Assembly (NCBI GenBank): GCA_001873215.1
Contig: MNYS01000006.1
Coordinates: forward strand, 122,839 to 172,440
DNA: 49,602 nucleotides
Direction: 5' to 3'
Source: Candidatus Levybacteria bacterium CG2_30_37_29
GTDB lineage: Bacteria; Patescibacteriota; Microgenomatia; Levybacterales; GWA1-39-11
Shown here piece after piece: positions 7,953-28,607 of the stretch. Under the pieces are notes generated by a model. The model was given only the letters and a program-made list of their open reading frames with translations. It had not been told where the DNA came from and did no database searches. Position 1 is the stretch's first letter, and every line of letters starts with the position of its first letter. The position numbers and the translations under genes are program-made.

Positions 7953-10900
7953 TTAAAGATGAAAGCTTATATCCCTTAACTTATTAAAGTCAAAAATATC
8001 AATTATATTATCTTGTTTGCAATCTGAGTCTTTACTAGTTTTTGTTGTTCCCAAGAATTCATCTTTCCACCAATCAAAGTCAAGATTGTCGACTTTTCCT
8101 GACGATTCACCCTTGGCAGGGTCACAGGTGGGGATTAATGTTGGTGTTGCGACAGAAGGGGTAGCTGTAGGTGTTGCGATGGGACCGGTTGTGGGTGTAG
8201 CGGTAGGTACAGGAGTGTTTGTTGGGAATGAAGTCGGGGTAGGAGTTGGAGTGGCTGTGGGGTTTATAGATGAAAAATTGCGCCCAAAATACCAAACAGA
8301 TTTACCAGAAGTAAAAGGACTTCTTGTTATATGAACCGTTTCAAACCAATTTTTTCCAGGTGCAGGTTGTGTTGTTAGCCATGGTGTAAAGCGAATTTCA
8401 GCTATAATTTCATCTTGGTCACCAAGCGGGGCTTCAACGGATTGGTACTGTGCGACTTCGCTATCTCCCCAGAACGTTACTTTGTTATCAAGTGGATGTT
8501 CAAGACCAATAAATCTTCCTAAAGTTAGGTATCCATCAGGATTGGGTTTTGGATAGGTAAGAGCATCGTATGTCATATTGTTTATTTTAATATATCTGAC
8601 CAAGTCAACAAGTCCGTAATAATTTCCTAGAGCTAACGCCTCAACCGGACTGGAATCATCGTTAAGGACGACCTGAAATTTAACTTTTTGTTCGCCGTTG
8701 TTAATTGTCATCAATAGATAAAAATGTGCTCCGTTTGGAAAACGAGAAAATTGATATTTAGCAACGGTTTGCGTAGAAGTTTGAGAAACAATGCTTTGGA
8801 TTATGGTTGCTCCATCAATTTCGGCATTTCCCCATACTCCTCCAACTCGGGCAATTGGGACTATATTATTATATTGTTGCCAGCTTCCGCTTGAAGTCTT
8901 GTAGAAAAGATCAATGATTCCGGTAATAGATGGAGAAGGTATAATGCGGATATATTCATTTTCATAATATGGTGGAGGTGTGGGTGTAGGACTTGCGACA
9001 TTTACTCCAAAAAGCTTCTTTGCGAGATTAAAATTTTCTTCTCCATCCTCAGTTGTTGGAGCAAAGGCATATCCCTCTGTGAACCCGTTCCAAATATCAA
9101 GAGTAATTCCTGCAGTTTCATATTTTTTGGCAAGATTTTCGACCGAACTTCTCCATGCAGAATTATCTCCATAAACAGTGCCTGGTGGACGAACTAGATG
9201 ATCATCATAACCGGGTAGGACATTTGCCATTAAAGGAATGTTTGAAGATTTCCACCTTTCAAGGATTTCTTCCGCTTTAGTTAATCTTTCATTCTCGGTA
9301 TTACCGTCGGAAGTAATATTAAAAGGATTTATTGCAAGAAGCGATTGGGTATTTTGCAATGCATTTACATCGGGACCTTCATATGACCCGTTTGCGGGAA
9401 GCGGGGTAGGGTCGATAATAAAACCGATTTTCTGTCCTGTTTCAGACTCAATTTTGTTTGCTACTGTATCAAATGCTTGGGCAAATTCTTGTGTATTTAC
9501 AGAACCGGCATGGATTGTTTCGATTAGCCAAATTACTTTCCTCTCCTGTCCATTTTTATCATATATTTTTAACCAATTTAAGTATGTTCCGTAAGTTGAG
9601 AGCAGCGATTTAATTCTTGCTTCCAGTTTTGATGTATCTTGCGGAAAGTCTTTCCAGAACTCAAAACTTTGCATTGGATTGTCTGTATTTGTAACTACTT
9701 CAATGAGAGGTGCAACCATGAGTTGTCTTGCAGCAGCTTTTTCAAAGGTTTTTTTGTTAGCGTCGATTGTGCTTTGGGTCGGAGCATACTGCAAATTTTC
9801 ATTGTTTGGCCCCCACCATGAAAGTTTTATTGTATTTGCGCCTGCGTTTTTTATCTGGTCAAAAGTTTGGTTAAGATACGATTCTTCTGTCGTGTAAGGA
9901 GGATAATATTGGAGTAGAGGATGTCTGGTATAAAATTGTTTAACATTGTTATTTGGTAATCCGCCAAAAAAGAAAACGCCTTTAACTTTTTGCCCTGAAA
10001 ATTCTGTGTTTGCAATTCTCCCCCAGTTATTTGTCGGTGATGGAGTAGGAGCAGCCTCACATCTATTTGTTGCTGGATTACAAAAAGTACAATTATTTTG
10101 AGCTACATTGCAATCAGTCGGGCAACTCGCTAAAGTTTCGCCAGCATCACAAATTCCATTGCCGCAGTAAGATGCAAATAACAAGGTATTCATAACAGTT
10201 GAATATGATGCTTTAGGAGTTCCATCCTTTTTCATAATGCCAAACGTATTTTCACAATTGTATAGAGGATCAGCAAAAGCAGGGTTATCTCTATATTCAA
10301 AAATGAGCACTGAATCCGCGCCACCTTGCCTTGCTCGTTCAATGTATTGCGGTAGTAATCTTTTCTGATCTTCCTCAGTCCATGTAGAGCTTCCAGTGCA
10401 TAAACCTGTCTCAGTAACTATTACAGGTTTGCCATATGTGGCTTTTAGGTCTGCAGTATTCGCAGTTATAGCTTGTATTTCTGCTGAATCATTGTCAGGG
10501 TAAATATCAACAGAAATAACATCTAGATTAGAACCGATGGAATTAAAGTACAATTTCCAGCGGTCACGAAGAGCGGAATTGTAAGGCCAGCCTCCGCTAG
10601 TTGTTGTGATTTGAGCATTCGGATCTATGCTTCGAAGAGTAGTTCTTGCCTGGCCTAATACTGCATTTAGCTGGGAAAGATACGCATCACTTAGGGGAGA
10701 TTTGCTGACATCATTGCTGAATTTATCAAATGCATGCAAATCAGATTCGCCTAATACTAGCCAAAGTCTCAATTTAGCTGTAAATCGAATGCCAAGCTCG
10801 CGATAATATGCGTCAGTTATTGTAAGATATTGAGATTGCGTATATTTGGTTTCATGCGAGCCAGACGCGTCAGAATAAAGTTTTGCCCACTGCGGAACGT

Positions 10901-11387
10901 TAGTTACAAGTTCAACCTGGAATCCTTTGCCGCGAGCATAATCGATTGCCTGGCTATATTGATCAAGACGACTAGGATTGCAGTTTATTGGTGAAGCGAC
11001 TGAACAATCGATGGTTGCAGATGACGGGTCTGTTCTTGGGAAAGCCTCCCAGTCCCAGATGGGGAACCGTATTAGAATCGGTTTTAATCCGGCTGCAGCT
11101 TTTATGGCGTCGATATCCTGCTTAAAAACCTCATAAGTGAGAGGATTAGGATCATTGATAAAAGAAGTATCGAAATTAATGTGAGTGTTGAAACCAGCTG
11201 ATGCCAGTGGAGGCAAAGCACAATCCGCCTGCTTATTGCATAGTGCATTGCATGCATTAAATTCTTGTGCTGCTCTTTGCCTGATGTCTTGTGATTTTCG
11301 ATTAAGTAACAATGTAACCGGTATTGAGATGATAAGTAAGACAGTAAGCAGTGTGCCAATTACCTTCTTTTTGGATAATAAATTCAT
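7953..11387 (-). CDS. Large surface protein: TM + QDIRQRA, clan GH-A-like barrel, GH99-like domain, unknown domain, PT linker, dockerin-like C-terminus
   Basis: LGESD acid/base-like and VIVTETG nucleophile-like motifs, FG....DGTPKASY; LSWWG, PGYDD..RP, WNGFTEG; terminal DNLDFDWW...DCKQDNIIDIFDF. Confidence 0.75.
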   Translation of the reverse strand: MNLLSKKKVIGTLLTVLLIISIPVTLLLNRKSQDIRQRAAQEFNACNALCNKQADCALPPLASAGFNTHINFDTSFINDPNPLTYEVFKQDIDAIKAAAGLKPILIRFPIWDWEAFPRTDPSSATIDCSVASPINCNPSRLDQYSQAIDYARGKGFQVELVTNVPQWAKLYSDASGSHETKYTQSQYLTITDAYYRELGIRFTAKLRLWLVLGESDLHAFDKFSNDVSKSPLSDAYLSQLNAVLGQARTTLRSIDPNAQITTTSGGWPYNSALRDRWKLYFNSIGSNLDVISVDIYPDNDSAEIQAITANTADLKATYGKPVIVTETGLCTGSSTWTEEDQKRLLPQYIERARQGGADSVLIFEYRDNPAFADPLYNCENTFGIMKKDGTPKASYSTVMNTLLFASYCGNGICDAGETLASCPTDCNVAQNNCTFCNPATNRCEAAPTPSPTNNWGRIANTEFSGQKVKGVFFFGGLPNNNVKQFYTRHPLLQYYPPYTTEESYLNQTFDQIKNAGANTIKLSWWGPNNENLQYAPTQSTIDANKKTFEKAAARQLMVAPLIEVVTNTDNPMQSFEFWKDFPQDTSKLEARIKSLLSTYGTYLNWLKIYDKNGQERKVIWLIETIHAGSVNTQEFAQAFDTVANKIESETGQKIGFIIDPTPLPANGSYEGPDVNALQNTQSLLAINPFNITSDGNTENERLTKAEEILERWKSSNIPLMANVLPGYDDHLVRPPGTVYGDNSAWRSSVENLAKKYETAGITLDIWNGFTEGYAFAPTTEDGEENFNLAKKLFGVNVASPTPTPPPYYENEYIRIIPSPSITGIIDLFYKTSSGSWQQYNNIVPIARVGGVWGNAEIDGATIIQSIVSQTSTQTVAKYQFSRFPNGAHFYLLMTINNGEQKVKFQVVLNDDSSPVEALALGNYYGLVDLVRYIKINNMTYDALTYPKPNPDGYLTLGRFIGLEHPLDNKVTFWGDSEVAQYQSVEAPLGDQDEIIAEIRFTPWLTTQPAPGKNWFETVHITRSPFTSGKSVWYFGRNFSSINPTATPTPTPTSFPTNTPVPTATPTTGPIATPTATPSVATPTLIPTCDPAKGESSGKVDNLDFDWWKDEFLGTTKTSKDSDCKQDNIIDIFDFNKLRDISFHL

Positions 11388-11441
11388 ATACAAAGATAAT
11401 TAATAATACCACTTTTAAACATATGCAGGCTTAGATCAAAA

Positions 11442-11469
11442 CCCCGATTCTATTGGGTTTTTTTGTGGC
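11442..11469 (+). repeat. 28-bp direct repeat, copy 2
   Basis: Identical to 7856-7883. Confidence 0.9.
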
Positions 11470-11527
11470 TAAAAAATGTAGTTTAAAACTTTTAATCAGC
11501 CACGTTTTATGCTAAACTTCTATTCAT

Positions 11528-11778
11528 GGCGCGGTGGCCTACCTGCCGGCAGGCAGGCGAAGTTCCGCCAAGGGCGGACAGGGTTCATGCGAGAGTTGGG
11601 AATTTTCTAAACTTGGTGCGATGGCGAAGTGGTAACGCGGCGGTCTGCAAAACCGCTATGCACGGGTTCGAATCCCGTTCGCACCTCATTAAGAAAAGTG
11701 CGGGACAAAACTTTTACTCCGATAAAATCGGAGGTAGCTGAAAGCGTTAGCGAGGGTTCAATTCCCTTCCGCGCCTCA
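11528..11778 (+). pseudogene. Split tRNA-Cys-like shell enclosing the intact tRNA-Cys
   Basis: GGCGCGG (11528-11534) complementary to CCGCGCC (11769-11775), preceded by T-arm GAGGG-TTCAATT-CCCTT and followed by TCA. Confidence 0.55.
11615..11686 (+). tRNA. tRNA-Cys(GCA)
   Basis: Acceptor GGTGCGA/TCGCACC, anticodon arm GCGGT-CTGCAAA-ACCGC, T-loop TTCGAAT, U discriminator; CCA not encoded. Confidence 0.96.
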
Positions 11779-12437: not shown

Positions 12438-12510
12438 GGGCATCTAGTTCATCGGTTAGAACGCTTTCCTGATAAGAAAGAGGTGCATGGTTCGATTCCA
12501 TGGATGCCCA
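12438..12510 (+). tRNA. tRNA-Ile(GAT)
   Basis: Acceptor GGGCATC/GATGCCC, anticodon arm CTTTC-CTGATAA-GAAAG, T-loop TTCGATT. Confidence 0.96.
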
Positions 12511-12569
12511 CAATTTTTTTCTAAACCCCGTTTAAACTTTTCTCAGAAACCTTTTGTTCGTTCAAGATG

Positions 12570-13160
12570 TTATTTCGCTGGCTGTTGGAGTGTAATTTCC
12601 AGAGGAGTTGTTTGTTTTAATACCGATTCTGAGACTCCAAATTTTGTAACCATTGTTTTATTAACAAAGCTGATAAACGTTTGGGCGGGAAGGAGAGCAG
12701 TTGTTGCTTTTTGAAATGTCACTGTTGCAATTTTTCCGGCACCCTTTATTCCTTTTTGATTGGAGTTGGTAAAAAAGAAATATGATACTCTTCCAAGCGT
12801 AGGGTCAACTTCAGACAAAAGAACTTTGCCAAGCCCAAAAAACGAGGCGTCAAGTGGGGCGGCAATCTTAACGTTTGTTATAACTTTTGGATCGTAAGTC
12901 AATTCTACTTGAATACCTGAAATCTCATCATTTGACGTATCGGCAAGGATATCTACGCTTACCGGAGTTGAGCCGGAAGCATCAATAAGCGCGGGCGCAA
13001 AAGACAGTGTTGTTGATTTTACAACGGCGGCGATTGTTGGTGCAATAGAAGGTTTCTGAACAACCGGTTTTATTGATTGATCTGATGTTATTGCAAGAAT
13101 TACCAAAACTGTTGTAGTAATTGCAAGAATAATTATAAGAAGTGTAGTTTTTTTGGGCAT
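12570..13160 (-). CDS. Membrane-anchored cohesin-domain protein
   Basis: TM helix; LSFAP...VSVDILADT..EISGIQVELTYDPKVI...G.GKIATVTF cohesin-like pattern. Confidence 0.75.
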   Translation of the reverse strand: MPKKTTLLIIILAITTTVLVILAITSDQSIKPVVQKPSIAPTIAAVVKSTTLSFAPALIDASGSTPVSVDILADTSNDEISGIQVELTYDPKVITNVKIAAPLDASFFGLGKVLLSEVDPTLGRVSYFFFTNSNQKGIKGAGKIATVTFQKATTALLPAQTFISFVNKTMVTKFGVSESVLKQTTPLEITLQQPAK

Positions 13161-13212: not shown

Positions 13213-14496
13213 TTAGTCGCCTTTTCTTCTCGAAAATCCTGTATAGAGAATACTCAAGTCAATTGAATCAACAAGCCCATCGTCATTAATATCAGCTCTT
13301 GATTTTATGGCAGCTGTACAGTTGTCGCGGGAATTTGTACAATCAAGCATCGCGTTGTAGTCTGCCAAATTAAGCTCGTTATCGTGGGCAGAATCAATAT
13401 CTCCCGTTATAAGTTCTACTGTTGAGGTTGGTGTATAAACGGCCTTAGCAAGATTTACGATTACAGGAAGTACTTTTCGCAAAGAATTTGTAGTTCGAAT
13501 TTTTACAAGATAAGGCTTTGCTGGTATTGGACCAAGATTTACCGACGCTTCGTATTTGCCGTTAATGTAAAACGCGACTGTTTCTTTGGCTAAAATTGCG
13601 TCTCCGTCAATTACCTCAATTTCAGTATTCCGTCCAAAAGCTTGCGGATTATTATTTTGTCCCCCACTTGTATTTGTACCAATTCCGGGAAGTGTGTATT
13701 CAATCTTAATTCCGACATCATTCTGGCCAAGCACTGGAGTTGGAGTAGGAGTTTTTGGCGTCGTCGGTGTGACGCTGGGACCTGATGTTGGTGTTGGAGT
13801 CGCGGTCGGTGTTGGAGTTAGTGTTGGTGTTGGTGTTGGGCAATTGCCGTTGAAGTCTCCAGGTGTACATGTTGGTGTTGGATTACCAGTTACCGTAGGT
13901 GTTAGGGTTGGTGTTGGGGTGGTGTTTGTGTCAACGACAGTAATATTTGCAACGCCGGGGAGACCCGTGACCGGTATATTTCCTGAAATTCCTGAAGCTG
14001 CAATTTTCACAGCCACTTGATGGCTAAAGGCGATAGCCATACTTCCTGTATCCAGAGCCTTAAATTTAAAAATTACGACATTAACATTTTCACCGGAGAT
14101 AGGGGTGGAAGTTTGATTGATAAGAATTATTCTTTGCAATCTGGTAGTACTTTGTTGAGAATTTGCTCCATCAATTAATGTATAACTTTCGTGGGCCTTT
14201 GTGCCAATAAGTTCAAACTTTGTTGAATTATATTCCAGTACACCATCTATTGCAGAAATATCATTTCCTTTAGTATCCATGGTAAGCGTAAGTTCAAAAT
14301 CTTCCCCCTTATTTACTGTTTTTGAACTTGGTGAAAAAGATAAAGTTACCGGAGCTCCGGTTGATGCTCTTTGGCGGATATCTTGTTGTTTTAGAACTTG
14401 GGAAACAATAATGGGAATTGATAATACTAAAATTCCCAAAGCCGCGAGAGTAATTGGCCTTTTATGTGTTTTGTAAAATTCAATTATTTTTTCCAT
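13213..14496 (-). CDS. Surface protein: TM + QQDIRQRA, cohesin, PT linker, beta domain, dockerin
   Basis: LSFSPSS..V.KGEDF...DISAIDGVLEYN; duplicated Ca-binding loops GDID..DNELNLADY and ADINDDGLVDSIDLS. Confidence 0.8.
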   Translation of the reverse strand: MEKIIEFYKTHKRPITLAALGILVLSIPIIVSQVLKQQDIRQRASTGAPVTLSFSPSSKTVNKGEDFELTLTMDTKGNDISAIDGVLEYNSTKFELIGTKAHESYTLIDGANSQQSTTRLQRIILINQTSTPISGENVNVVIFKFKALDTGSMAIAFSHQVAVKIAASGISGNIPVTGLPGVANITVVDTNTTPTPTLTPTVTGNPTPTCTPGDFNGNCPTPTPTLTPTPTATPTPTSGPSVTPTTPKTPTPTPVLGQNDVGIKIEYTLPGIGTNTSGGQNNNPQAFGRNTEIEVIDGDAILAKETVAFYINGKYEASVNLGPIPAKPYLVKIRTTNSLRKVLPVIVNLAKAVYTPTSTVELITGDIDSAHDNELNLADYNAMLDCTNSRDNCTAAIKSRADINDDGLVDSIDLSILYTGFSRRKGD

Positions 14497-14498: not shown

Positions 14499-15650
14499 TT
14501 AATACAAAAGCCCCGGCCAGCGCAAATCCCTCATTTTATTAAAGTCAAAAATATCAATTATATTATCTTGTTTGCAGTCTGAAAGTTTGTTGGTATATGT
14601 GGAAACACCTAGTAATTCATTTTTCCACCATGCAAAGTCAAGATCATTAATTATATGATTCGAGGCATCACTTTTATCAGGATCACAGGTAGAAGGTAGT
14701 GGTGCAGTTGTTGGTGTTGGTGTTGTGGTGGACACCCTCATCCTGTAAAGATATCCATTATTAGGCCATGCCGTCCAGGGAATAGTTGCATCAACTAAGT
14801 TGTAAGTTGTTGTGCCGGAAGGCGGAGGTGAGGTTGTTATAATATATCCAAAACCGTCATCCTGTGTTTCTGTAGGTCCGGGCTGATAAGAGCTTTTCAT
14901 GCAAAGACCAACATTAGTACCCATAGGCGCGCTGGCGCATAGGAGGTCATTAGTTTCGATAAAGACTAAGTCTGATGTCATGTTCGATGGTCTATACCAA
15001 CTTTTCCAAGTTCCCGCTGGGAAATTTCCCCTTGAAAGTGCTGAAACGCCAGAGGCAAGTGTTGTTGCAAAGTTGGATACAGGGATGGTCTGGCCGCTGT
15101 ATGCAAAACAATATTTACCGTTATTTGTGGCGGTTACAACTACGGGCACGCTTCCAGTGGTACAGTTTAAGGGGGCTAAAGTGGGGGTTGGGGTTATTGT
15201 AGGGGTGGGTGTGGTGGTAGGCGTTGAAGTAGGGGGAGGGGGGTTTGCGCATATATGCGAATCATTACAGTACATACTTGAACAATTGCTGTTGGCATCG
15301 CATTGACATCCAATCGCCCGCCCCCACTGACTAGTGATGCAGTAGTTGGGTGGTGGATCATAAACAACTCCGGGATTGCAAAACTGACAAGTAGATGTGG
15401 CGATGTTGCATTCTCCTCCCATTGGAGACCAGGATCCCGTTCCTCCCTGTACCGTGGTACATGTTTCTCCTAAGCTACCGGGGCGGCATGATACGAAAAC
15501 CTCACCAACAGCGGAATTGTACTTGATTTGTCTTTCGTCTGGATTCGGGCACGTAGCTGCATAAACCTTAGAAGAATAGATATTGCTAAAGATAAATAAA
15601 GTAAAAATAAATGAACTTAACAATAACAACCTCAATAATTTATTTCCCAT
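14499..15650 (-). CDS. Secreted Cys-rich protein with PT linkers and dockerin-like C-terminus
   Basis: Signal peptide ending KVYA|A; Cys-rich modules; C-terminus nearly identical to that of 7953-11387. Confidence 0.75.
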   Translation of the reverse strand: MGNKLLRLLLLSSFIFTLFIFSNIYSSKVYAATCPNPDERQIKYNSAVGEVFVSCRPGSLGETCTTVQGGTGSWSPMGGECNIATSTCQFCNPGVVYDPPPNYCITSQWGRAIGCQCDANSNCSSMYCNDSHICANPPPPTSTPTTTPTPTITPTPTLAPLNCTTGSVPVVVTATNNGKYCFAYSGQTIPVSNFATTLASGVSALSRGNFPAGTWKSWYRPSNMTSDLVFIETNDLLCASAPMGTNVGLCMKSSYQPGPTETQDDGFGYIITTSPPPSGTTTYNLVDATIPWTAWPNNGYLYRMRVSTTTPTPTTAPLPSTCDPDKSDASNHIINDLDFAWWKNELLGVSTYTNKLSDCKQDNIIDIFDFNKMRDLRWPGLLY

Positions 15651-15772
15651 AATAAATACAGCAATTATTCTAATAATAGAAGTATTTAATGTGGTTGTCA
15701 ATCCTTATTTCAAGCAATTTAATAACAAGATTTTTTTCCGGTCTGGTAGTTATGTCTTCAATTCTGCAGTTC

Positions 15773-16487: not shown

Positions 16488-16526
16488 ACCTAGAAAGAGT
16501 GTAGTACTTCTTTTTTCTCTTGTCAA

Positions 16527-19979: not shown

Positions 19980-20057
19980 GTTTTTTTTAAATACAAATGT
20001 TGCGAGCCTTATTATATAGGATGTATTATGAGTTGTCAAAGAATGGGGAGGATTAAG

Positions 20058-21380
20058 TCAGGGTAAAGGAAACTTTGAAGTGAAAGATTTTACCTCATTA
20101 CAAATTTTTAAAAGTTCTTGGTTTTTCAAAGCCCGTTTTTTAAAGTCTTTCATGAATACCGAACGTTCTTCTTTGTTTTCCGGAAGTCTCTCATTCTTTA
20201 CTTGCTCAATCGCGCGATTTATCCAAGCAGCAACCCTTATCATGTCTTTTTCCTTCATACCTCGGGTTGTAATCGCGGGCGTTCCAAGCCTTATTCCGCC
20301 CGGATAGAACGGGGGATTGGTATCAAAGGGAATACCGTTTTTATTAACAACAATGCCTGCAACTTCAAGCGCAAAGGCGGCTATCGCACCGTTGACGCCT
20401 TTGTTTGATAAATCTATAAGAATAAGGTGGTTATCGGTTCCGTTTGAAACAAGTTTAAACTTAAATTTTATTAATTCATCCGAAAGAGCTTTTGCATTTT
20501 TTACAATTTGTTTTGCATATTGTTTAAACTTAAGACTTGACGCTTCAAGAAGCGCAACAGCAATTGCTGCTGTTTGATTATCATGAGGTCCGCCCTGAAG
20601 TCCCGGAATAATTGCAGTGTCAATTTTTTTTGAAAGCTCGGGATCTTTTTCCAAACCCTTTTTTGTTACCATAATAAGCGCGCCGCGGGGCCCGCGAAGT
20701 GTTTTATGTGTTGTTGTTGTGACAATATGAGCATAGGGAACAGGGCTTGGGTGAGCGCCTCCTACAATAAGTCCTGCAATATGAGATATGTCAGCAAGGA
20801 GAATTGCCCCCGCCTTATCCGCTATTTGAGCGAATTGTTTGAAATCAACAATCCGTGGATATGCTGTAAAACCACAAACTATAATGTCTGGTTTTTCGGC
20901 TATTGCTTGCTGTTCGATTTTCTCATAATCCAATTTTCCGTCTTCTCCAAGCGTATACAAAACAGATTTAAAAAATTTTCCGCTTGCTGACATCTTTTGT
21001 CCGTGAGTAAGATGTCCTCCGAAGGCAAGCGATAGTCCCATTATTTTCCCCTTCAATGGTTCAAGTGTTGCAAAATAAACAGCAAGATTCATAACAGATC
21101 CTGACAGTGCTTGAACATTTACATAAGGAACGCCAAACAATTTTTTTGCGCGGTCCTGCGCAAGAAGTTCAACTGAGTCCGCAACCGCATTTCCCTGGTA
21201 ATATCTTTTTTTGGGATAACCTTCGGAATATTTATTGTTTAGTACCGTTCCAAGCGCTTCCAAGACAGCAGAGGAAGCATAATTTTCAGACGGAATCATT
21301 TCCAAAACCTCTTTTTGCCGCTTCTCTTCAAGTTTTATTAGATTATAAATTTGTGGATCAATCTTCCTAAGCGTTTTCAT
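20058..21380 (-). CDS. glyA: Serine hydroxymethyltransferase
   Basis: NKYSEGYP.KRYY.G, GGHLTHG, TTTTHKTLRGPRG, QGGP, GTDNHL, GIRLGTPAITTRG. Confidence 0.98.
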   Translation of the reverse strand: MKTLRKIDPQIYNLIKLEEKRQKEVLEMIPSENYASSAVLEALGTVLNNKYSEGYPKKRYYQGNAVADSVELLAQDRAKKLFGVPYVNVQALSGSVMNLAVYFATLEPLKGKIMGLSLAFGGHLTHGQKMSASGKFFKSVLYTLGEDGKLDYEKIEQQAIAEKPDIIVCGFTAYPRIVDFKQFAQIADKAGAILLADISHIAGLIVGGAHPSPVPYAHIVTTTTHKTLRGPRGALIMVTKKGLEKDPELSKKIDTAIIPGLQGGPHDNQTAAIAVALLEASSLKFKQYAKQIVKNAKALSDELIKFKFKLVSNGTDNHLILIDLSNKGVNGAIAAFALEVAGIVVNKNGIPFDTNPPFYPGGIRLGTPAITTRGMKEKDMIRVAAWINRAIEQVKNERLPENKEERSVFMKDFKKRALKNQELLKICNEVKSFTSKFPLP

Positions 21381-21512
21381 TACGACCTATTATATATAGG
21401 TAGGTTTCAAATTCCAAGAGGAAGTTTGCGAATAAGTTTGGGAAGCTGTTATTTGCTTTCACAATGTTTGTGTTTTAAAATATAACAATTCGGGCAAACT
21501 AAGCCCAATTAT

Positions 21513-21583
21513 ATGGATAAGCAAAGCTTTCCGTTGGATAAGAAAATCTTTCTGTTAGATAAGAAAATCTTTCCGATGGATAA
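21513..21583 (+). repeat. 21-bp tandem repeat (~3.4 copies) at uppS 5' end
   Basis: ATGGATAAGCAAAGCTTTCCG / TTGGATAAGAAAATCTTTCTG / TTAGATAAGAAAATCTTTCCG / ATGGATAA. Confidence 0.9.
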
Positions 21584-22271
21584 ATCAGAAATACCCGCGC
21601 ATGTCGCAATTATTCCTGATGGGAATAGGCGATGGGCAAAAGCGCATAAGCTTTCATCTCTTCAAGGCCACAAAAAGGGATTTGATATTGCCGTAATTTT
21701 ATGCAGAAAACTTAGGGAGCTTGGAGTCTCTACTGTAACCCTCTGGGCTTTTTCGACTGAAAATTGGAGCAGGACGCCCCGGGAAGTTTCTTACCTTATG
21801 CGTTTGTACGGATTTCTTGCGGATAAATATCTGTCAGAGGCAATGAAAGACAAAATAAAAATAACACATCTTGGAAGAAAAGATAGATTGCCAAAAAACC
21901 TTCTTAACAAAATTATTAACATGGAAGAAAAAACAAAAAATTTCACCAATTACTTTATAAATATTGCGCTTGATTACGGAGGGCGGGATGAGATAATTCG
22001 AGGCATAAAAAAAGCGGGCGAAAAAGGAGTGGCGCAAGAAATATCGGTTGAAAATTTCAACAACTTTTTAGATACTTCAGGCCAGCCTTATCCTGACCCC
22101 GATTTAATAATAAGGACAAGCGGTGAATTTAGGACTTCAGGATTTATGCCATGGCAGGGAGCATACTCCGAATATTTATATTTGGATAAATATTTTCCCG
22201 CGCTTTTGCCACGCGACATGGAAGATGCCCTGCAAGAATATGCAAGCCGGAAAAGAAGATTTGGAAAGTAA
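21513..22271 (+). CDS. uppS: Undecaprenyl diphosphate synthase (cis-prenyltransferase)
   Basis: HVAIIPDGNRRWA, WAFSTENW.R, DYGGRDEI, PDLIIRTSGE.R.SGF. Confidence 0.96.
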   Translation: MDKQSFPLDKKIFLLDKKIFPMDKSEIPAHVAIIPDGNRRWAKAHKLSSLQGHKKGFDIAVILCRKLRELGVSTVTLWAFSTENWSRTPREVSYLMRLYGFLADKYLSEAMKDKIKITHLGRKDRLPKNLLNKIINMEEKTKNFTNYFINIALDYGGRDEIIRGIKKAGEKGVAQEISVENFNNFLDTSGQPYPDPDLIIRTSGEFRTSGFMPWQGAYSEYLYLDKYFPALLPRDMEDALQEYASRKRRFGK

Positions 22272-22752: not shown

Positions 22753-22758
22753 AATCTT

Positions 22759-24186
22759 TTACATGAAGCAGGAGAAAGGATGATTTTTGTCTTTTTTAAA
22801 TATTCCTCCCCATTCAACGACCGTGAATCCACTTCTTTTAATTGGCGTAATTACCGGCTGGGTAATATCAATTTTATTTTCCAGCGCTTCAAAATAAAGA
22901 GTAACGCGGATAACAGTATTTGGGGTGGGGGAGATAGAAAGTGGAGCAATTGAATTTAGGTTTGATTGTGAGACAATACCTATAAAATAATAAGGAGAAT
23001 CGGGCAAAGCTTTTATCCAGTAATTTTTAAATTCATCAGCTTCTTTTTTATTCAATGAAAGCTTGGGAAGAATTTCCGTCAAAAAGCTGGCAAGATCATT
23101 TTTTGCAACAACAAATCCTTTATCCGGTTTTTCTATATTACTATCAGGAATTTCCGCCTCGTAGTAAAGATAGTCATAACTCTTGTTTTGGTATGAAAGA
23201 ATTCCATTTGGCTGGGCTTGTACGTCCCAGCCGCTTTGTGGATATTGTGGGTCCGTATACAACATTTTTCCAACCGGCGCAACTTTTACATTTACATTTG
23301 TTGTGGTTGTGGGATACAGGTAGATTGCGGGCTTGCAAAGAGGCGAAAGCCATGGAATCGAAATGCCCTCCTGTTCTACTGTAAAAGTCCGTAATTGGAG
23401 GTTCGTTTTCCCGGGATAATCCGTAGGTAGTATTATTTTCTGGCCCGACCCTTTTGCAGGAGTATCGGGCCCAAAATTTTTATCGCAGTTTTTAATAAAA
23501 TCCGGCATTCCGGAAGAATCATATTCTGATATTTTATAATAAGCATCATAAACTGTTTTATCTGTTCCATAGCAAGATATATCAGCCGCAGGATTGGGCC
23601 ACGTGCATGCAGCGGCAGTACAATTTTGCTTGCAGATAAAAATAAGGTTGTCGTTTGGAATTGCGTCGCAGTATTTTTGTATATCAGCATTTGTATAGTT
23701 TCGTTTCATAAACATATATGGATCAGGCGGATTTTTTTTAAAGTACAAATCTTTTGGATGACCGATAGGATCTGGTCTGTTACAAAAGCTTTTTACAGCA
23801 GGATTATCAACGGCATGTGTATCTGAAGAGTTAAGGATAATTGGTTTTCCGTCAGGTGTTGTTATTCCGCTGTCTTTTAAGTGAAGATTCCCTTCGGTAA
23901 GAACACTGTTTGTTCTAAGAAGTCCGTATCTTTCTCCATTGAACGTTATTACCTGGTTTTTGCTCTCGTCTCTTTGTGGTTGGCAGGCGTCTCCGTCTCC
24001 GGTATCACAGCATGTTGTTGAAGTGCTAAATCCAATCGGAGAATTTCCACGATTTTGACCGAAAAGTCCGCCTCCAATAATAAATCCGAAAATAACCGCG
24101 AAAATCAGGATAATAATTTCAACCCCGCCTCTCGTGGTTAAGCGCTTCTTTTGAATTTTCTTTCTTTTTTTTATTTTTGGCATCAC
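22759..24186 (-). CDS. Pilin-like-leader protein with Cys-rich region and conserved KPxIYLYP...GFTVVEWGG domain of unknown function
   Basis: TTRG|GVEIIILIF leader; KPAIYLYP, GW.V.A.PNG, YLYYEA, YW...L, RSGFTVVEWGG. Confidence 0.75.
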   Translation of the reverse strand: MMPKIKKRKKIQKKRLTTRGGVEIIILIFAVIFGFIIGGGLFGQNRGNSPIGFSTSTTCCDTGDGDACQPQRDESKNQVITFNGERYGLLRTNSVLTEGNLHLKDSGITTPDGKPIILNSSDTHAVDNPAVKSFCNRPDPIGHPKDLYFKKNPPDPYMFMKRNYTNADIQKYCDAIPNDNLIFICKQNCTAAACTWPNPAADISCYGTDKTVYDAYYKISEYDSSGMPDFIKNCDKNFGPDTPAKGSGQKIILPTDYPGKTNLQLRTFTVEQEGISIPWLSPLCKPAIYLYPTTTTNVNVKVAPVGKMLYTDPQYPQSGWDVQAQPNGILSYQNKSYDYLYYEAEIPDSNIEKPDKGFVVAKNDLASFLTEILPKLSLNKKEADEFKNYWIKALPDSPYYFIGIVSQSNLNSIAPLSISPTPNTVIRVTLYFEALENKIDITQPVITPIKRSGFTVVEWGGIFKKDKNHPFSCFM

Positions 24187-24216
24187 TAATTATAGTATGG
24201 CTAACTAATCGTTGTG

Positions 24217-24603
24217 TCAACTGCCATAATCAGGTGTTGGTGTGGGTGGAGGAGGGGTAGGAGTATGGGTTGGTCCACTTCCAGGCGGAGGAGTCGGAGT
24301 TGGAGTCGGTGTAGGGCCGGGAGGATTTGTGGGGGTAGGTGTTGTCGGCGGCAAAGTAGGTGGGATAGGAGTCGGAGTGGGGGAAATAAATTTCAGGGTT
24401 CCGATTTGGAGATTTTTTTTAGGACCAATAATCCCTGAGTCAACAGGAATACCGGCCGGTTCAGTTGAATTAGGGGTAATTTTTCGGGTATAAACGCCGC
24501 CGACTAAAAATATGCTTCCTACAACAACTGCCGCAACAATTAAATAAATAATCCCCTGACCTTGTGTTTTTAAAAAAAATTGTTGCCTCTTCTTTCTTAG
24601 CAT
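24217..24603 (-). CDS. Pilin-like-leader protein with Pro/Thr-rich tail
   Basis: KTQG|QGIIYLIVAAVVVGSIFLVGG; KKNLQIGTLKF motif. Confidence 0.65.
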   Translation of the reverse strand: MLRKKRQQFFLKTQGQGIIYLIVAAVVVGSIFLVGGVYTRKITPNSTEPAGIPVDSGIIGPKKNLQIGTLKFISPTPTPIPPTLPPTTPTPTNPPGPTPTPTPTPPPGSGPTHTPTPPPPTPTPDYGS

Positions 24604-24612
24604 GAGAAATTA

Positions 24613-25584
24613 TCAGGTGCAAATTTTCTGGGAAATACTTTTGAAAATAGCTTTAAAATCGGTAGCGTCGTTTGCTAAGAAATAGTCGGTAGCGGGATCT
24701 GTGGTAATAGTTTTCATCATATTTTCGATTTTGCTTCTGAAATGTTCATCTGCAGCACTAATAATAACTATTGAGAATATTCTGACATTTTTACCGCCAC
24801 CGCTTACTAAGCTTTTTATTTCCGCTGATATATTGCTACCGGCTGTTGGGTCTTCATTTGGATCAAAACACCTGCATTTTCCGGTGGTCGGACTTGCGGT
24901 GCATGACGGTCCTCCTATGCTCCCCGGACAAATTTTGTTATTTTCTCCTGTTTCCGGTATTCCGTCAGTAAAGAAAATAAGATTGAAATTGTAGGTATTA
25001 AATTTAGTATTTGCCACAGCTGCCCTAAGGTCATCAAGCTCAGCGCTAAAAGCTGTTCTTGTCATCGTACCGAAATTGGCTGAAAGTGAATTTACTGTTT
25101 GGTTATATGCGCTTCTATTTTTTGAATAAAAATCAATTGGGACAAGACGGGACGTAGGAGGCAATCCAGAATCATTCGTGCTGCTGAAACGCCTTATGCC
25201 TACAGCTGTTTTGTCGTTAAAATTGGCGGCAAAATTTTGCATAGCTTGTTTTAGATTTGCAAGCTTTACTCCTCCATCAAAAGCCATGGATCCGGATGTG
25301 TCTATAAGAAAATCGATTGCCGCTTGATCGCTGCATTTTTTAAATTTGAATGTTTCAATTTTAAGGGATTTGCCATTTTGATTTGTCGGGACAGAGGTTA
25401 AGTCTACTTCCCCGACATCATCCATATTTACTTTTGAGTCGTCAAGTTCCGGAAAAATGCCCCCTGCCAAAATAATCGCGCCGAGAACAACGACACCCAA
25501 GATAAGCGTAATTGCGATATCCCCACGCCTCAAAAAACTAAAAAAAGATTTTTTCCTTTGACGTACAACCCGTTTTTTCCTCAT
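24613..25584 (-). CDS. von Willebrand factor A domain protein with pilin-like leader
   Basis: MIDAS DTSGSM, FGT.T, IFFTDG; RRG|DIAITLILGVVVLG leader. Confidence 0.85.
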   Translation of the reverse strand: MRKKRVVRQRKKSFFSFLRRGDIAITLILGVVVLGAIILAGGIFPELDDSKVNMDDVGEVDLTSVPTNQNGKSLKIETFKFKKCSDQAAIDFLIDTSGSMAFDGGVKLANLKQAMQNFAANFNDKTAVGIRRFSSTNDSGLPPTSRLVPIDFYSKNRSAYNQTVNSLSANFGTMTRTAFSAELDDLRAAVANTKFNTYNFNLIFFTDGIPETGENNKICPGSIGGPSCTASPTTGKCRCFDPNEDPTAGSNISAEIKSLVSGGGKNVRIFSIVIISAADEHFRSKIENMMKTITTDPATDYFLANDATDFKAIFKSISQKICT

Positions 25585-25638
25585 ATACTCTAAGTGTAAT
25601 ACATATTTTTTTCGCGTGTCAAGGAAAAAAATAGCTTA

Positions 25639-25653
25639 CAGGGTCCGACCCTG
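25639..25653. repeat. Dispersed REP-like palindrome family A
   Basis: CAGGGTCCGACCCTG, intergenic, 9 kb from the transposase. Confidence 0.88.
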
Positions 25654-25700
25654 CTATTCCAAATGTAAATTATGAGTCAATGCACGGTTTCGTATTATGT

Positions 25701-26351
25701 TTATCGTGGAATAGAGGTGCTGTCTTGGAGAAAGGTGATTTCAAGGTCTGTTTTCTCAAATTTTACTTGTTTACCCAAATTAATAAGGGCGGTTAATGAA
25801 GTTATCTGGATTCCAAACTTTTCTTTATTTGATAAATTTACAACATCATATTTTATTGTCGCCAATTTCCCTTTTCCTGTTTTTGGCGTATCAGTATTAG
25901 TATTATTTAAGGCAAGAGTGATGAAAGCTTTTCCTTTTTCCTGATTTACGATTGTCTGGTCAACCCTGAATTCTGAAAATGGAGAAGTTAGATCATCTGT
26001 TTTATTTACGCTTACATTTGAAATCATACTTGGGTCAAATGACAATTCCATTTGTACTATCGCAACACCTTTTCCTTGTGTGTCAAGAACAATATCAGAC
26101 GAGATCCCATTCTGTTTTTTCTGAAGTAGCTTTATTGACGGAGGAGAGAAGTAGAGAAATGCAGGGTTTTTTCTAATCACAGTTTCCGAAGTTTTATTTG
26201 GTTTCGTAAAATCATTTTTATCCGTTTTTAATTGTGAAAGCACAACAACAATTACGGTTAGCAAAACCAAAATTCCCACACAAACAAGAGCAATAATTAT
26301 ATTTTTTTTACTCAAAATCTGTTTTTCTTCTATTTCTATATCATTTTCCAT
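25701..26351 (-). CDS. Membrane-anchored cohesin-like protein
   Basis: TM; LYFSPPS...DIVLDT.GKGV..VQMELSFDP...G.GKLATI. Confidence 0.7.
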   Translation of the reverse strand: MENDIEIEEKQILSKKNIIIALVCVGILVLLTVIVVVLSQLKTDKNDFTKPNKTSETVIRKNPAFLYFSPPSIKLLQKKQNGISSDIVLDTQGKGVAIVQMELSFDPSMISNVSVNKTDDLTSPFSEFRVDQTIVNQEKGKAFITLALNNTNTDTPKTGKGKLATIKYDVVNLSNKEKFGIQITSLTALINLGKQVKFEKTDLEITFLQDSTSIPR

Positions 26352-26354
26352 AAT

Positions 26355-28607
26355 TTAGTTACACTTCCAATCATGTGCAAAGTCAGTACATGTTCCGTTT
26401 GGACACCATCTTGAAGATGCTCCGTCACAGCAGCCGCTACCCGAACCTGGTGGTACTTGAATTACACATGCAAGATTATTATTACAATTACCCATCTTAC
26501 ATGGACCTCCAAGAACAGATGAATATGGTTCCGTAGTCGGTGTTGGGGTAGGAGTTGGTGTTTTGGTCGGCGTGGCAGTAGCACTAGGAACTGTTGTTGG
26601 GGTAGGAGTTGGTGTTCCCGTTGTGTGCGGTGCGGGGGTTAATGTTGTATTTGGTCTTAGACAACAGGCTTTATATTTATTACCCGTAAACGGATTTGTT
26701 GTATCTTTGCATGCTTGGTCAGCAGCGTTATTCTTTGCATTTTCTGCAGGAGGATAAGGCTTGCCTCTTTGTGGTGAAAATTCCGTGCAGAGTTTTTCTT
26801 CACAAGAACTTGAAGAAGGTGGGCAGTATCTGTAATCCGGCGTTGGTGTCGGGGTTCCCGGACCAGGAGTAGGTCCAAGGCACCAAGGAGACTTCCAGCA
26901 GGGATTTTGATCCTTATCATTATCATCCCAGCCGTATTCTCTAGGATCTGTTCCGCTAACGCATTGGTATACGTCAGTGTAATGCTTACCACAGTATTTT
27001 CCGGCGTAGGCATCTGCCATATCGTAAGGCTGGCCGTCGCATTTTGGAATTAGCGGATGGGGGTTATCTTCAGGTTTGGGAAGTCCCCCAGCGTTTTTAC
27101 ATACCTGTGAATCTTCAAGAATTATTGTTAGATCTTTGCAAACCCAACATACGCTGTTAGCCCCATTCTTTGCTTTACAATCTGCGCTACCTTTATCATC
27201 TGTATATCTATGCCATGTTTTTGGGTAAGTGGGGCATGCATCGTTTTCGTTGTGGGCTGTTAGAGGTTCACAAGAGCCAGAACAAGGCTTAGGAGTTGGA
27301 GTTGGGGTAGGGGATGACGTCGGCGTTGCCGTCGCACCACCAGGCGTCGTACTCACAGGTGTTGGTGTTGGTGTTGGAGATGAGGAGATTGCGCAAACAA
27401 CTTTATATTTGCACGTACCAGTGTTGTCAGAGTAGTTATTAGGATCAAAATCTGAAGAGAATGATAATTTGTCAGCAGAAATTATAATAGGCTGGAGTCC
27501 TCCTCCTGGATCATTGACCTGAGGACATTCTAGAGGACATCTACTTGAATTTGTATTGTCGGCGCTCCAAGCGCACCATCCTCCGGAGTCTTTAGTTGCT
27601 GAGCTAATAGGGCCATTTGTTGTAGCATTAATAGGTTTCTTCATGTCGAAACTTACAAAAGCCCCAACATCTCCATTACATGTTATGGGTATATTATTTC
27701 CAGATGTCGGGGTTGGCGTCGGTGTTCCGGTCGTATTAGGCGTGGGGGTTGGTGTTTTGCTCGGGGCTGGAGTTGTGTTGGAATCCGTAACATCAACGCT
27801 TGCATCTTTTTCTATGATTTGACCATCAGCATCAACAGTGACTTTTGTATGAATAGTAATCTTTGGTTTATCTGAATCTTCGACTTTATATGAAGGAGTG
27901 CAGTCACCTCCGCCTACACCGTTATTAGATTCGTTAAAAAACGGTGTTGTTTGTGGTGGCGCTGGAGCTGTTTGTGTCATTTTTATATGAAACGGAGTAT
28001 TTGCAGGAGTTAGATTGTAGCAGATCATTATATCATCACCGACCTTATAAGATGCTTCTTTATCAAAGGATACAACTAAGGTGTAATTTCCTGCGGCGCT
28101 TTGCGTTACTTTCGCTCCCTCCCCCAAGTTGTGGCGTTGGAACCAACCTTGGTTTACCTCAAGTGCGCGTCGGTAGGGAGCCTTTGGTGTAATGGGCGTT
28201 AAATCATTTGGTATTCCATCTTTTAGCTCGAGGATTTTTCCCGAAGCGTCAAGGAAGGCAATTGTCAGCGGAATTTTGGTATTTTTCATGTGGAACGCGA
28301 AGCTTACATCATCGGGAAAGACAAAAAGCATTCCGTGATCTTCAGGCATGCTGGTACGGTTCATAAGCCCATTCTCCCATTCAGCCTGTGTTGTAGCTAG
28401 CTCAACATAGATTTTTTCCGAAACGCCCGCATCAGTAATAGTTAGCGTACTACTACCGGCTGCTTGTTGGCGGGTGTCCTGCTGTTGACCCACCAGTTTT
28501 AGTGTTATCGGTATTGCCAGAAGTGTTATTGCGGCAATAATAATTGGAATCGGCGCAAACCCTCGGTTGGAGTTAAATTTGTTAAAATATTTAAACACAC
28601 CACTCAT
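26355..28607 (-). CDS. Modular surface protein: leader + QQDTRQQA, DUF192 domain, several Cys-rich modules with PT linkers
   Basis: VELATT..E...GLM.R...GMLFVF...FHMKNT.IPL.IAFLD...ALEVN.G (DUF192). Confidence 0.8.
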   Translation of the reverse strand: MSGVFKYFNKFNSNRGFAPIPIIIAAITLLAIPITLKLVGQQQDTRQQAAGSSTLTITDAGVSEKIYVELATTQAEWENGLMNRTSMPEDHGMLFVFPDDVSFAFHMKNTKIPLTIAFLDASGKILELKDGIPNDLTPITPKAPYRRALEVNQGWFQRHNLGEGAKVTQSAAGNYTLVVSFDKEASYKVGDDIMICYNLTPANTPFHIKMTQTAPAPPQTTPFFNESNNGVGGGDCTPSYKVEDSDKPKITIHTKVTVDADGQIIEKDASVDVTDSNTTPAPSKTPTPTPNTTGTPTPTPTSGNNIPITCNGDVGAFVSFDMKKPINATTNGPISSATKDSGGWCAWSADNTNSSRCPLECPQVNDPGGGLQPIIISADKLSFSSDFDPNNYSDNTGTCKYKVVCAISSSPTPTPTPVSTTPGGATATPTSSPTPTPTPKPCSGSCEPLTAHNENDACPTYPKTWHRYTDDKGSADCKAKNGANSVCWVCKDLTIILEDSQVCKNAGGLPKPEDNPHPLIPKCDGQPYDMADAYAGKYCGKHYTDVYQCVSGTDPREYGWDDNDKDQNPCWKSPWCLGPTPGPGTPTPTPDYRYCPPSSSSCEEKLCTEFSPQRGKPYPPAENAKNNAADQACKDTTNPFTGNKYKACCLRPNTTLTPAPHTTGTPTPTPTTVPSATATPTKTPTPTPTPTTEPYSSVLGGPCKMGNCNNNLACVIQVPPGSGSGCCDGASSRWCPNGTCTDFAHDWKCN

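Follow-up and report, generated by a model that had tools for sequence, protein, structure and literature searches.

A probable non-cellulosomal, two-tier cohesin–dockerin surface display system in a Microgenomates-type bacterium of the candidate phyla radiation

The analysis reported here concerns a window of 49,602 nucleotides (the whole stretch of DNA that was analyzed; G000:C2:122839-172440) in the 1.0-Mb genome of a Candidatus Levybacteria bacterium (10 contigs, rated 99.6% complete), and centers on a minus-strand operon at 15650-12570, hereafter cluster A, which encodes in this order a cargo protein (P0004), an adaptor (P0003) and a membrane anchor (P0002), with spacers of 2 nt and 52 nt between the genes. 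We judge it probable that the operon constitutes the core of a non-cellulosomal, two-tier cohesin–dockerin surface display system in a Microgenomates-type bacterium belonging to the candidate phyla radiation (CPR). The identification of its modules as cohesins, a type II-like X module–dockerin dyad (X-Doc) and a diverged dockerin, together with the conservation of the operon, is solid; the two-tier wiring is plausible and is partly supported by a predicted complex; and which plug fits which socket would follow by analogy with known systems. The original prediction, drawn from the DNA letters, had proposed a modular, membrane-anchored cohesin–dockerin assembly that does not degrade cellulose, and this idea is sustained by the family profiles, the modeled folds, the gene order and one controlled complex prediction.

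The adaptor gene (13213..14496, minus strand; 427 amino acids, aa), identified by Pfam Cohesin, family profiles and structure models, encodes an N-terminal signal or transmembrane segment (14365-14496; translation and signal profile), a cohesin (13921-14364; Pfam Cohesin and model), a Pro/Thr-rich (PT) linker (13732-13920; translation), an X module (13402-13731) and a dockerin (13216-13401), the last two delimited by model and profile. That one protein carries both a cohesin and a dockerin had been claimed beforehand, and Pfam, profile and model agree on it. The cohesin scores 27.4 bits in hmmscan and 30 bits in the whole-genome scan, above the Pfam Cohesin (PF00963) cut-off of 24.1 bits, and seven of the eight matches (E≤1) of its family profile (13 sequences) in the Protein Data Bank (PDB) are cohesins, the type I cohesins of CipC being matched over the full length (1g1k_A, 0.0022), with no type II cohesin among the matches at that threshold; the odd one out is 7urp_A (1e-4 over 48 residues). 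In the full-length AlphaFold model of P0003 (7 sequences; mean predicted local distance difference test score, pLDDT, of 64.8), the cohesin region reaches a pLDDT of about 80-90, and the model aligns with solved cohesins at Z scores from 16.9 (2vo8, root-mean-square deviation 2.0 Å over 131 residues) down to 11, overall with deviations of 2-3 Å over about 130 residues, 49 of the 50 structural matches listed being cohesins. The Z scores are 14-17 with cohesins of type I and of the Clostridium perfringens and Archaeoglobus fulgidus kind (14.3 for 2xdh), and 11.5-13.2 with those of type II. In its model, P0003, the sole cohesin compared with solved structures, has the nine-stranded jelly-roll of the cohesin fold.

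The C-terminal half of P0003 is recognized through its family. The tail itself scores 18.3 bits with Dockerin_1 (PF00404; cut-off 22.9 bits), and a phmmer search of the PDB with P0003 returned weak dockerin pieces only (best E 0.053). Within the genome it matches two proteins encoded on another contig, C3 (phmmer 7e-26 and 9e-12), the first of which, a close paralogue, passes Dockerin_1 (genome scan, 32.2 bits; hmmscan, 28 bits); by sequence, the tail is classed as a dockerin through this family, the C3 paralogue included. The X-Doc profile (last ~172 residues, 15 sequences) matches the type II X-Doc of CipA (2b59_B) at an E value of 2.4e-10 in an alignment running continuously from the X module into the dockerin, followed by 3kcp_A, 5g5d_B and the X-Docs of Acetivibrio cellulolyticus ScaA. 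Folded alone, the X-Doc gave a pLDDT of 92.9 and a predicted template-modeling score (pTM) of 0.87, and the ten best Foldseek matches of this model are all type II X-Doc dyads of cellulosomal scaffoldins (5g5d_B, 3kcp_A, 2b59_B, 4fl4, 5k39_B, 4u3s_B, 4wi0_B and 5m0y_B; E 1.3e-6 to 3.7e-5, TM 0.52-0.63, 164-173 columns, 16-22% identity), with a gap before the eleventh (1.6e-3). The best PDB matches of the full-length model, extending over about 400 columns, are the CohI9-X-DocII constructs of CipA (4fl4_L, 6.9e-12; 3kcp_A, 5.7e-11). Since the X-Doc profile and both models match CipA X-DocII constructs, P0003 is the one-cohesin counterpart of the C-terminal end of CipA, and its modeled X-Doc has the rigid X module–dockerin dyad of the CipA/ScaA type II kind. 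The dockerin possesses two loops whose positions 1, 3, 5, 9 and 12 are occupied by acidic or amide residues, the first loop carrying a 2-residue insertion, and homologues aligned over the full length (7 sequences in one alignment, 19 in another) keep the architecture of signal, cohesin, PT linker, a beta-rich module of ~100 residues and two EF-hand repeats. The linker between the two repeats (within 13216-13401 in P0003) holds two conserved cysteines in the X-Doc family, one of them invariant. A weak match to the P0003 linker and X module lies on contig C8 (C8:10216-10665, plus strand; E 7.7e-8); it is interrupted by one TGA and, judged from its sequence, may be a decayed paralogue.

The anchor gene (12570..13160, minus strand; 196 aa), assigned by its family profile, encodes a protein with an N-terminus rich in Lys, a lone hydrophobic helix and one cohesin (about 12573-13022). 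As a single sequence P0002 remains below the Pfam cut-off (21.1 bits in hmmscan, 21.5 in the genome scan), and 15 of the 16 PDB matches (E≤1) of its family profile (12 sequences) are cohesins, the best being type II cohesins (3l8q_A, 1.8e-4; 5g5d_A, 2.6e-4), with matches at about 2e-3 to chains of SdbA (2bm3_A, 2b59_A), the natural partner of the CipA X-DocII. By hhalign, the cohesin family of P0002 is homologous to that of P0003 (probability 96%, E 1.6e-9). Another small membrane-anchored cohesin, P0005 (25701..26351, minus strand; 216 aa), is borderline in Pfam (24.0 bits in hmmscan, 24.8 in the genome scan); its family profile (7 sequences) finds cohesins in 14 of 16 PDB matches (best 5aoz_A, 6.7e-4), and P0005-like small cohesins occur in the corresponding neighborhood of related genomes. 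A fourth cohesin (C3:484-720; 19 bits in the whole-genome scan) belongs to a protein (C3:208-1479) in which an N-terminal signal and the cohesin are followed by a PKD domain and, after a Gly-rich motif, by a hydrophobic helix at the C-terminus; such two-ended proteins are encoded near the operon in five related loci (L015, L016 and L018-L020) and may offer an alternative kind of socket, anchored at the C-terminus. Each of the four cohesin-bearing open reading frames (ORFs) of the genome has one cohesin match, and none has two. The cohesin-like character suggested earlier for the proteins at 12570, 13213 and 25701 is confirmed by Pfam scores and by family profiles against the PDB; the Pfam check proposed alongside bears this out in part, the Cohesin model being passed by the protein at 13213, borderline at 25701 and below cut-off at 12570, and Dockerin_1 failing for all tails of the window.

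The second dockerin type terminates two cargo proteins. P0004 (14499..15650, minus strand; 383 aa from the ATG at 15650, the listed ORF being 14499-15701) carries a signal peptide of the classical kind, along with Cys-rich modules, PT linkers, a middle domain that matches no Pfam family and a C-terminal dockerin with a Cys pair (14502-14699). P0001 (7953..11387, minus strand; 1144 aa from the ATG at 11387, listed as 7953-11393) ends, after a PT linker, in a similar module (7956-8135). The ATGs at 15650 and 11387 are probably the true starts, as homologues have a Met at the corresponding positions. The Cys-rich modules on Pro/Thr linkers anticipated by the original prediction are plain in the translations. 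The two tails resemble each other over a module of ~60 residues (phmmer E 1e-17 to 1e-20) made of two loop-plus-helix repeats with two conserved cysteines, and when 1.84 billion representatives were searched exhaustively with HMMER, only 22 related proteins emerged at E≤1e-3, most of them small, Cys-rich and secreted, with the module at the C-terminus. Some members have the canonical 12-residue calcium loop. Four of 16 tail relatives match Dockerin_1 below threshold (E 0.002-0.058), with no competing family; canonical loops are found in the orthologous tails of L012, L014, L021 and L022, and the last three, from more distant genomes of the family, are plain duplicated EF-hand repeats matched by the hidden Markov models of both the tail and the X-Doc dockerin. 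The best PDB matches of the tail profile (16 sequences) are type I dockerins (5nrk_B, E 0.0017; 5nrm_B, 0.0045 across both repeats), dockerins accounting for five of nine matches and EF-hand or other proteins for the rest. Two tandem EF-hand-type loop-plus-helix repeats are visible in the alignments of the P0003, P0001 and P0004 tails alike, and the P0001 and P0004 tails are read as a diverged dockerin lineage outside the Pfam family. All three C-termini proposed as dockerin-like are thus taken as real, that of P0003 through family profile and model and those at 7953 and 14499 as members of the diverged lineage. The cysteines of the Cys-pair tails are placed differently from those of the X-Doc linker; extracellular disulfides in both dockerin kinds are plausible from these sequences.

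The gene order is strongly retained. In all 13 related loci examined a tail-bearing gene lies directly upstream, on the same strand, of the cohesin–X-Doc gene, and in 11 of them a P0002-like small cohesin gene comes directly next; of the two exceptions, L012 has its small cohesin 7 kb away, and none was seen in L011, an 8.4-kb contig with a masked stretch. Variants among the 13 include a cohesin–X-Doc gene split into two ORFs (L022), an extra cohesin gene in between (L014) and a tail protein that also has a cohesin (L021). P0003 is matched in 48 of 48 other genomes of the family (E≤1e-5), its X-Doc half being covered in 46 and the signal-plus-cohesin half in 29 (rows read by eye), and X-Docs in the family genomes end ORFs of 211-974 aa that often stand as tandem genes. 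In a phylum survey using an even sample of 300 other genomes (16 from the same order or class, 284 others), the X-Doc profile matched 23 (6/16 and 17/284), most matches covering the dockerin part only, and the small-cohesin profile matched 25 (5/16 and 20/284). Both profiles occur together in eight genomes, against about 1.9 expected if they were independent, a figure inflated by relatedness, and in five of these eight the matches are less than 2 kb apart or share one ORF.

The docking of cargo on the adaptor was modeled as a complex of the adaptor cohesin (aa 45-192, 19-row alignment) and the P0004 tail (16 rows) with two calcium ions. The score was 0.86, 0.85 and 0.85 in three runs, the best control reaching 0.02; for comparison, the mark applied to this score is reached by 116 of 157 solved complexes and by 2 of 215 mismatched pairs. 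Between runs, at least 98% of contacts coincide, and the partner pLDDT is at least 84. The contacts of least predicted error involve positions 10, 11, 13, 14, 17 and 18 of the second tail repeat, which we take to be the classical recognition positions of dockerins.

It could be argued that these are relic or purely structural Ig-like and EF-hand domains, on proteins that act independently without docking on one another. The single-sequence Pfam scores are indeed marginal (21.1, 24.0 and 18.3 bits, and nothing for two tails), and in the P0001 and P0004 tails the calcium loops show partial degeneration. However, the gene order is kept in 13 of 13 loci, the X-Doc model is of high confidence with X-Doc dyads exclusively as its top matches, the interface-forming helix residues persist in the dockerin repeats, the predicted complex exceeds its controls by 0.83, and cohesin and dockerin matches co-occur and adjoin in the phylum-wide sample. 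What modeling returns for the modules is specifically cohesin and type II X-dockerin, not the generic Ig or EF-hand folds that had been named beforehand as the outcome that would overturn the idea, and we regard a relic as very improbable.

On the basis of the above, the following two-tier wiring is proposed. The N-terminal helix of P0002 would hold this protein in the cytoplasmic membrane, with one type II-like cohesin presented outside. The exported P0003 would plug its rigid, type II-like, calcium-dependent X-Doc dyad into the P0002 cohesin, thereby leaving its own type I-like cohesin extended on the Pro/Thr linker, on which secreted cargo with a Cys-pair dockerin (P0004, P0001) would dock. 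The CAP-domain and M64-type peptidase proteins encoded on C3, which bear the same X-Doc dyad, would plug directly into the anchor cohesins. This assignment, of the cargo tail to the adaptor cohesin and of the X-Doc to the membrane cohesin, is made because type I-like and type II-like modules would, by analogy, each pair among themselves; docking is presumed to depend on calcium, and the N-terminal helix of the adaptor may be cleaved. As every scaffold protein has a single cohesin, the system would position individual proteins on the cell surface rather than build a multi-enzyme machine for cellulose degradation. Its biological purpose may lie in equipping the surface with enzymes or adhesins suited to life as an attached cell or a scavenger, and the role earlier put forward, host attachment or remodeling of host glycans, may be surmised from the cargo types together with known CPR lifestyles.

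Several points weigh against this proposal. Cohesin–dockerin binding is a prediction here, and the modeled complex covers one pairing, that of the adaptor cohesin with the P0004 tail, whose score may pass through likeness to solved cohesin–dockerin complexes; the use of our own alignments and of calcium lies outside the calibration of the predictor, and the controls, being unrelated proteins, carry no information on the preference of the tail among the four cohesins. A module-distance correlation over 11 loci weakly favored the pairing of the tail with the adaptor cohesin (Spearman 0.52, against 0.35 with the small cohesin), but such distances are confounded by shared ancestry, and with coefficients of 0.35-0.65 overall and no clear winner it was dropped as evidence. 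The adaptor has an N-terminal hydrophobic helix of its own, and if this helix stayed uncleaved the protein would anchor itself, making a separate anchor redundant. As single sequences, P0002 and P0005 lie just below the Pfam cohesin cut-off in hmmscan, and the type II label of P0002 is read from profile matches of modest E values only (1.8e-4 to 2e-3). The P0001 and P0004 tails match no Pfam family at E values up to 10, and hhalign relates the tail family to the X-Doc dockerins weakly (local P 0.003, probability 10%, 20 columns; global probability 1%), a result not counted as support. Their calcium binding may be altered, because loop 1 carries an insertion of 3-4 residues and loop 2 has a Lys at position 3. 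A search with a single tail sequence found the tail in only 6 of the 48 family genomes, so that a profile was required, and the 13 loci compared are not a random set, six having been collected through tail matches and seven through matches to the cohesin half of P0003.

A different use of the same parts would be the head-to-tail polymerization of P0003 into a surface fiber or matrix that would be rooted in the small cohesin. Cohesin and dockerin do occur on one polypeptide, this architecture is retained in the full-length homologues (7 and 19 aligned), and some relatives have two consecutive cohesin-bearing genes (L014). In such a chain, however, an X-Doc that resembles type II dyads would have to bind a cohesin that is nearer to type I (Z 14-17 against 11.5-13.2) and whose profile has no type II match at E≤1, and we know of no cross-reaction between type I and type II cohesin–dockerin pairs in known systems. 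In addition, a distinct dockerin type is always encoded just upstream and represents another obvious ligand for the cohesin. Because the P0003 cohesin is type I-like and its X-Doc type II-like, classes that pair separately in known systems, chaining by P0003 appears less likely than an adaptor role, and we consider a polymer quite unlikely.

The nature of the cargo bears on whether the system is instead a true minimal cellulosome that degrades plant or environmental polysaccharides, which we consider unlikely. Five proteins of the genome end in dockerins, namely P0003, the Cys-rich P0004, P0001, and the C3 proteins with a CAP domain (PF00188, 1.5e-14) and a Peptidase_M64 domain (9.7e-14). Glycoside hydrolase (GH)-like domains are present in one of the five, P0001, and neither is convincingly a cellulase. 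The first is a GH clan-A-like TIM barrel (about 10134-11216) that narrowly exceeds the Pfam cut-off for Glyco_hydro_53 (25.4 bits, cut-off 24) and gives weaker GH5, GH42 and GH_cc matches; it is followed by a Cys-rich piece and then by a GH99/WbsX-like region (8994-10031, aa 455-800), placed with GH99/WbsX/GH71 clusters by a language-model (Atlas) search alone, with a score of 0.94. Of the two GH-like domains claimed from the sequence, the first is borne out just above the Pfam threshold and the second is a language-model lead only. The next region (8199-8996, aa 800-1065) has no family; its best Atlas look-up (0.88) pointed to no common family, and it could hide a binding module, and a phmmer search of the PDB with P0001 gave 0 matches at E≤1. 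In favor of a cellulosome are, besides the P0001 barrel at the Pfam threshold and the GH99/WbsX lead, the presence among X-Doc relatives of proteins with Pfam Cellulase (P0027, PF00150) and GH18 (P0062, PF00704) domains, and PMC9123182, where the cohesin and dockerin genes expressed by Ca. Shapirobacterales are interpreted as parts of a cellulosome. Against it, no carbohydrate-binding module (CBM) family was found in any scanned protein by Pfam. Without a CBM, without GHs as the main dockerin-bearing cargo and without any protein carrying two or more cohesins, the system falls outside the strict definition of a cellulosome, which, as worded in PMC13487519, needs such a multi-cohesin scaffoldin.

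The proposed display system is worth comparing with the anchoring end of the cellulosome of Clostridium (Acetivibrio) thermocellum. P0003 resembles CipA CohI9-X-DocII in joining a type I-like cohesin, a linker, an X module and a type II-like dockerin in one polypeptide; where CipA is anchored through the type II cohesins of SdbA, OlpB or Orf2p (PDB 2B59, 3KCP, 4FL4, 5G5D), the P0002 profile matches cohesins of the SdbA type, and both systems employ two dockerin classes for two tiers. In clear contrast to CipA with its nine cohesins and CBM3, the scaffold encoded here has one cohesin and no CBM3, and its anchor is a bare N-terminal membrane helix instead of surface-layer homology (SLH) repeats on a Gram-positive wall. 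The cargo is mostly not carbohydrate-active, the cargo dockerin is diverged with a conserved Cys pair, the genome is a CPR genome of ~1 Mb, and the X-Doc shares 16-22% identity with its counterparts. Ruminococcus flavefaciens ScaC likewise combines one cohesin with one dockerin, and as in that protein the adaptor would recruit a dockerin class that the base cohesin does not recognize; unlike ScaC, which plugs into the multi-cohesin primary scaffoldin of a large cellulosome, the adaptor would attach to a membrane anchor directly. Peer et al. 2009 (FEMS Microbiol Lett 291:1) is said to be the source for cohesin and dockerin modules in non-cellulosomal proteins. Like such modules, those described here are found outside cellulose degraders on mostly non-catalytic or non-cellulase proteins, and the best structural matches of the P0003 cohesin include those of C. 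perfringens (2vo8) and A. fulgidus (2xdh), the non-cellulosomal structures compared being A. fulgidus 2XDH and the C. perfringens glycosidase cohesins 2VO8, 2JH2 and 2W1N. A sentence in PMC13487519 treats cohesin and dockerin modules outside cellulosomes as an established observation, and adaptor scaffoldins of cellulosomes are stated to be "generally monovalent" in a passage of PMC4959524. The minimal system of Cellulosilyticum lentocellum, as outlined in PMC13487519, likewise consists of a single-cohesin protein plus dockerin cargo, below the two-cohesin definition; it has one tier, however, and belongs to a Firmicute. Closer in phylogeny, Ca. Shapirobacterales (of the same superclass, Microgenomates) are reported in PMC9123182 to express type I/II cohesin and type III dockerin genes, read there as a cellulosome, and PMC10633639 mentions a dockerin-domain envelope protein, SEML1_0315, as essential in the Saccharibacterium Southlakia epibionticum (of the same superphylum), with a guess that it targets host glycans; in the parts of these papers available to us, both mentions are one-sentence annotations without an operon, adaptor, anchor, module typing or partner assignment. 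In the literature on CPR, Patescibacteria or Microgenomates and on non-cellulosomal cohesins and dockerins, mostly at the level of abstracts, the operon, a membrane-helix anchor, a Cys-pair dockerin and the N-terminal signal are not described.

The N-terminal signal just mentioned runs from a basic stretch through a hydrophobic helix, whose core is IPxTL-like, to a QQDxRQRA-like motif, three positions being invariant in an alignment of 18 sequences, and it has no Pfam or NCBIfam match. The signal profile locates it at 14365-14496 (P0003), 11250-11387 (P0001) and 28470-28607 (P0006) in the window and at C3:319-459 and C3:122956-123078 elsewhere; at E≤1e-15, no proteins of the genome other than these five (P0003, P0001, P0006, the C3 cohesin protein and the C3 M64 protein) match strongly. 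A cohesin or dockerin is encoded by four of them, and the fifth, P0006, abuts a cohesin gene. The signal is present in 49 of 49 family genomes (1-12 matches each); in the phylum sample it occurs in 8 of the 16 from the same order or class and in only 1 of the 284 others. From its sequence it could be a dedicated sorting or processing signal.

The signal also connects the operon, if loosely, with the second minus-strand cluster of envelope genes, cluster B (29204-22759), which encodes a small anchored protein, P0006, P0005, and VWA, PT-rich and Cys-rich proteins. P0006 (26355..28607, minus strand; 750 aa) contains DUF192 (95 bits), PT linkers, several Cys-rich modules and the same N-terminal signal as the adaptor, and lies 3 nt upstream of the P0005 cohesin gene; it has no dockerin, its residues 170-290 match no Pfam family, and we suspect it of being a member of the display system. 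Downstream of P0005, all on the minus strand, follow the N-terminally anchored VWA protein (24613-25584), PT-rich protein (24217-24603) and Cys-rich P0087 (22759-24186), in none of which was a cohesin or dockerin found. NCBIfam returned nothing meaningful for 11 proteins of clusters A and B. P0087, likewise without a Pfam family, and many paralogues (L013, L015-L017, L019, L020) end in a conserved GFTAxEWGG-like motif, and the paralogues adjoin P0005-like cohesins in L013, L015, L016 and L019; proteins of this type may be another kind of cohesin ligand. Cluster B (22759-29204) is tied to cluster A only by a cohesin and the shared signal, and the original view of 7953-28607 as one complex had to be given up, the span comprising two loosely tied clusters with housekeeping genes between them.

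A more far-reaching reading, rather doubtful as a joint claim, is that the operon and the class-restricted signal define a Microgenomates-specific pathway of export and display. In this pathway, proteins bearing the signal would be processed by a dedicated enzyme and assembled on a membrane socket through two orthogonal cohesin–dockerin pairs, the Cys-pair dockerin being a new dockerin class with a cohesin specificity of its own, and wall-poor, host-dependent cells would thereby carry swappable Cys-rich effectors, peptidases, CAP proteins and glycosidases as a surface set for contact with, or feeding on, other cells.

In the vast uncultured radiation of CPR bacteria (Patescibacteria), how cells organize their surfaces and make contact with others is a major open question. 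Against this background, the family-wide three-gene cassette mimics the type I/type II two-tier logic of cellulosomes with single-cohesin parts, a simple membrane-helix anchor and non-cellulolytic cargo. If the wiring proposed here is true, it offers a concrete, testable model of modular surface display in Microgenomates, cautions against taking cohesin and dockerin matches in CPR genomes as signs of cellulose degradation, adds a dockerin lineage that current Pfam models miss, and yields small orthogonal cohesin–dockerin pairs of possible use in protein engineering. The shared N-terminal signal may in turn mark the secretome that feeds the system.

With regard to the gene layout, clusters A and B are separated by 15825-22271, which by Pfam encodes an IS200-like gene, dCTP deaminase, DUF975, a CBS-methyltransferase, SHMT and UppS. 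P0001 was rejected as a member of the cluster A operon and is a separate transcription unit, because genes for tRNA-Cys (11615-11687) and tRNA-Ile (12438-12511), both on the plus strand, split it from the operon. Just upstream of the P0004 ATG, a promoter-like site on the minus strand (15673..15701) matches 11 of 12 positions of the sigma-70 hexamers with a 17-nt spacer, and the TTG at 15701, the listed start of P0004, falls in its -35 box; another near-consensus site (13198-13170, minus strand) lies within the 52-nt spacer between P0003 and P0002. These sites are consensus matches only, the region having 14 against 10.8 +/- 3.1 in shuffled sequences, and the site at 15673..15701 taken alone is weak evidence of a promoter.

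The description of the genome as of CPR type is a fair one, judged from the homologues, the genome size, the groundwater runs and an insertion in the 16S rRNA gene. The named homologues of window proteins belong to Candidatus Levyibacteriota, Daviesbacteria and Parcubacteria. The segment 12570-15701 is present in public sequencing runs, and all 24 runs listed are labeled as groundwater or aquifer metagenomes, with no RNA run among them. Upstream of the tRNA-Cys gene, a GC-rich imperfect palindrome of ~22 nt (11530-11560, plus strand; 11 pairs and 1 mismatch by eye) reads LPAGRQ in one frame; a search of 11450-11700 for inverted repeats gave no pair of 16 or more. IS200/Y1-transposase-like ORFs are located at 15825-16568 (minus strand) and 29328-29972 (plus strand), each just past the upstream end of one of the two clusters. 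The 16S rRNA gene (3930-5743, plus strand) measures 1814 nt against a model of 1533 positions and encloses a GIY-YIG endonuclease ORF (4036-4302), and the insertion looks like an intervening sequence as is common in CPR rRNA genes. Just downstream of this gene, a group II intron D1-D4 match (5988-6063; 35.5 bits against a cut-off of 35) is directly followed by a LAGLIDADG endonuclease ORF (6048-6536, plus strand).

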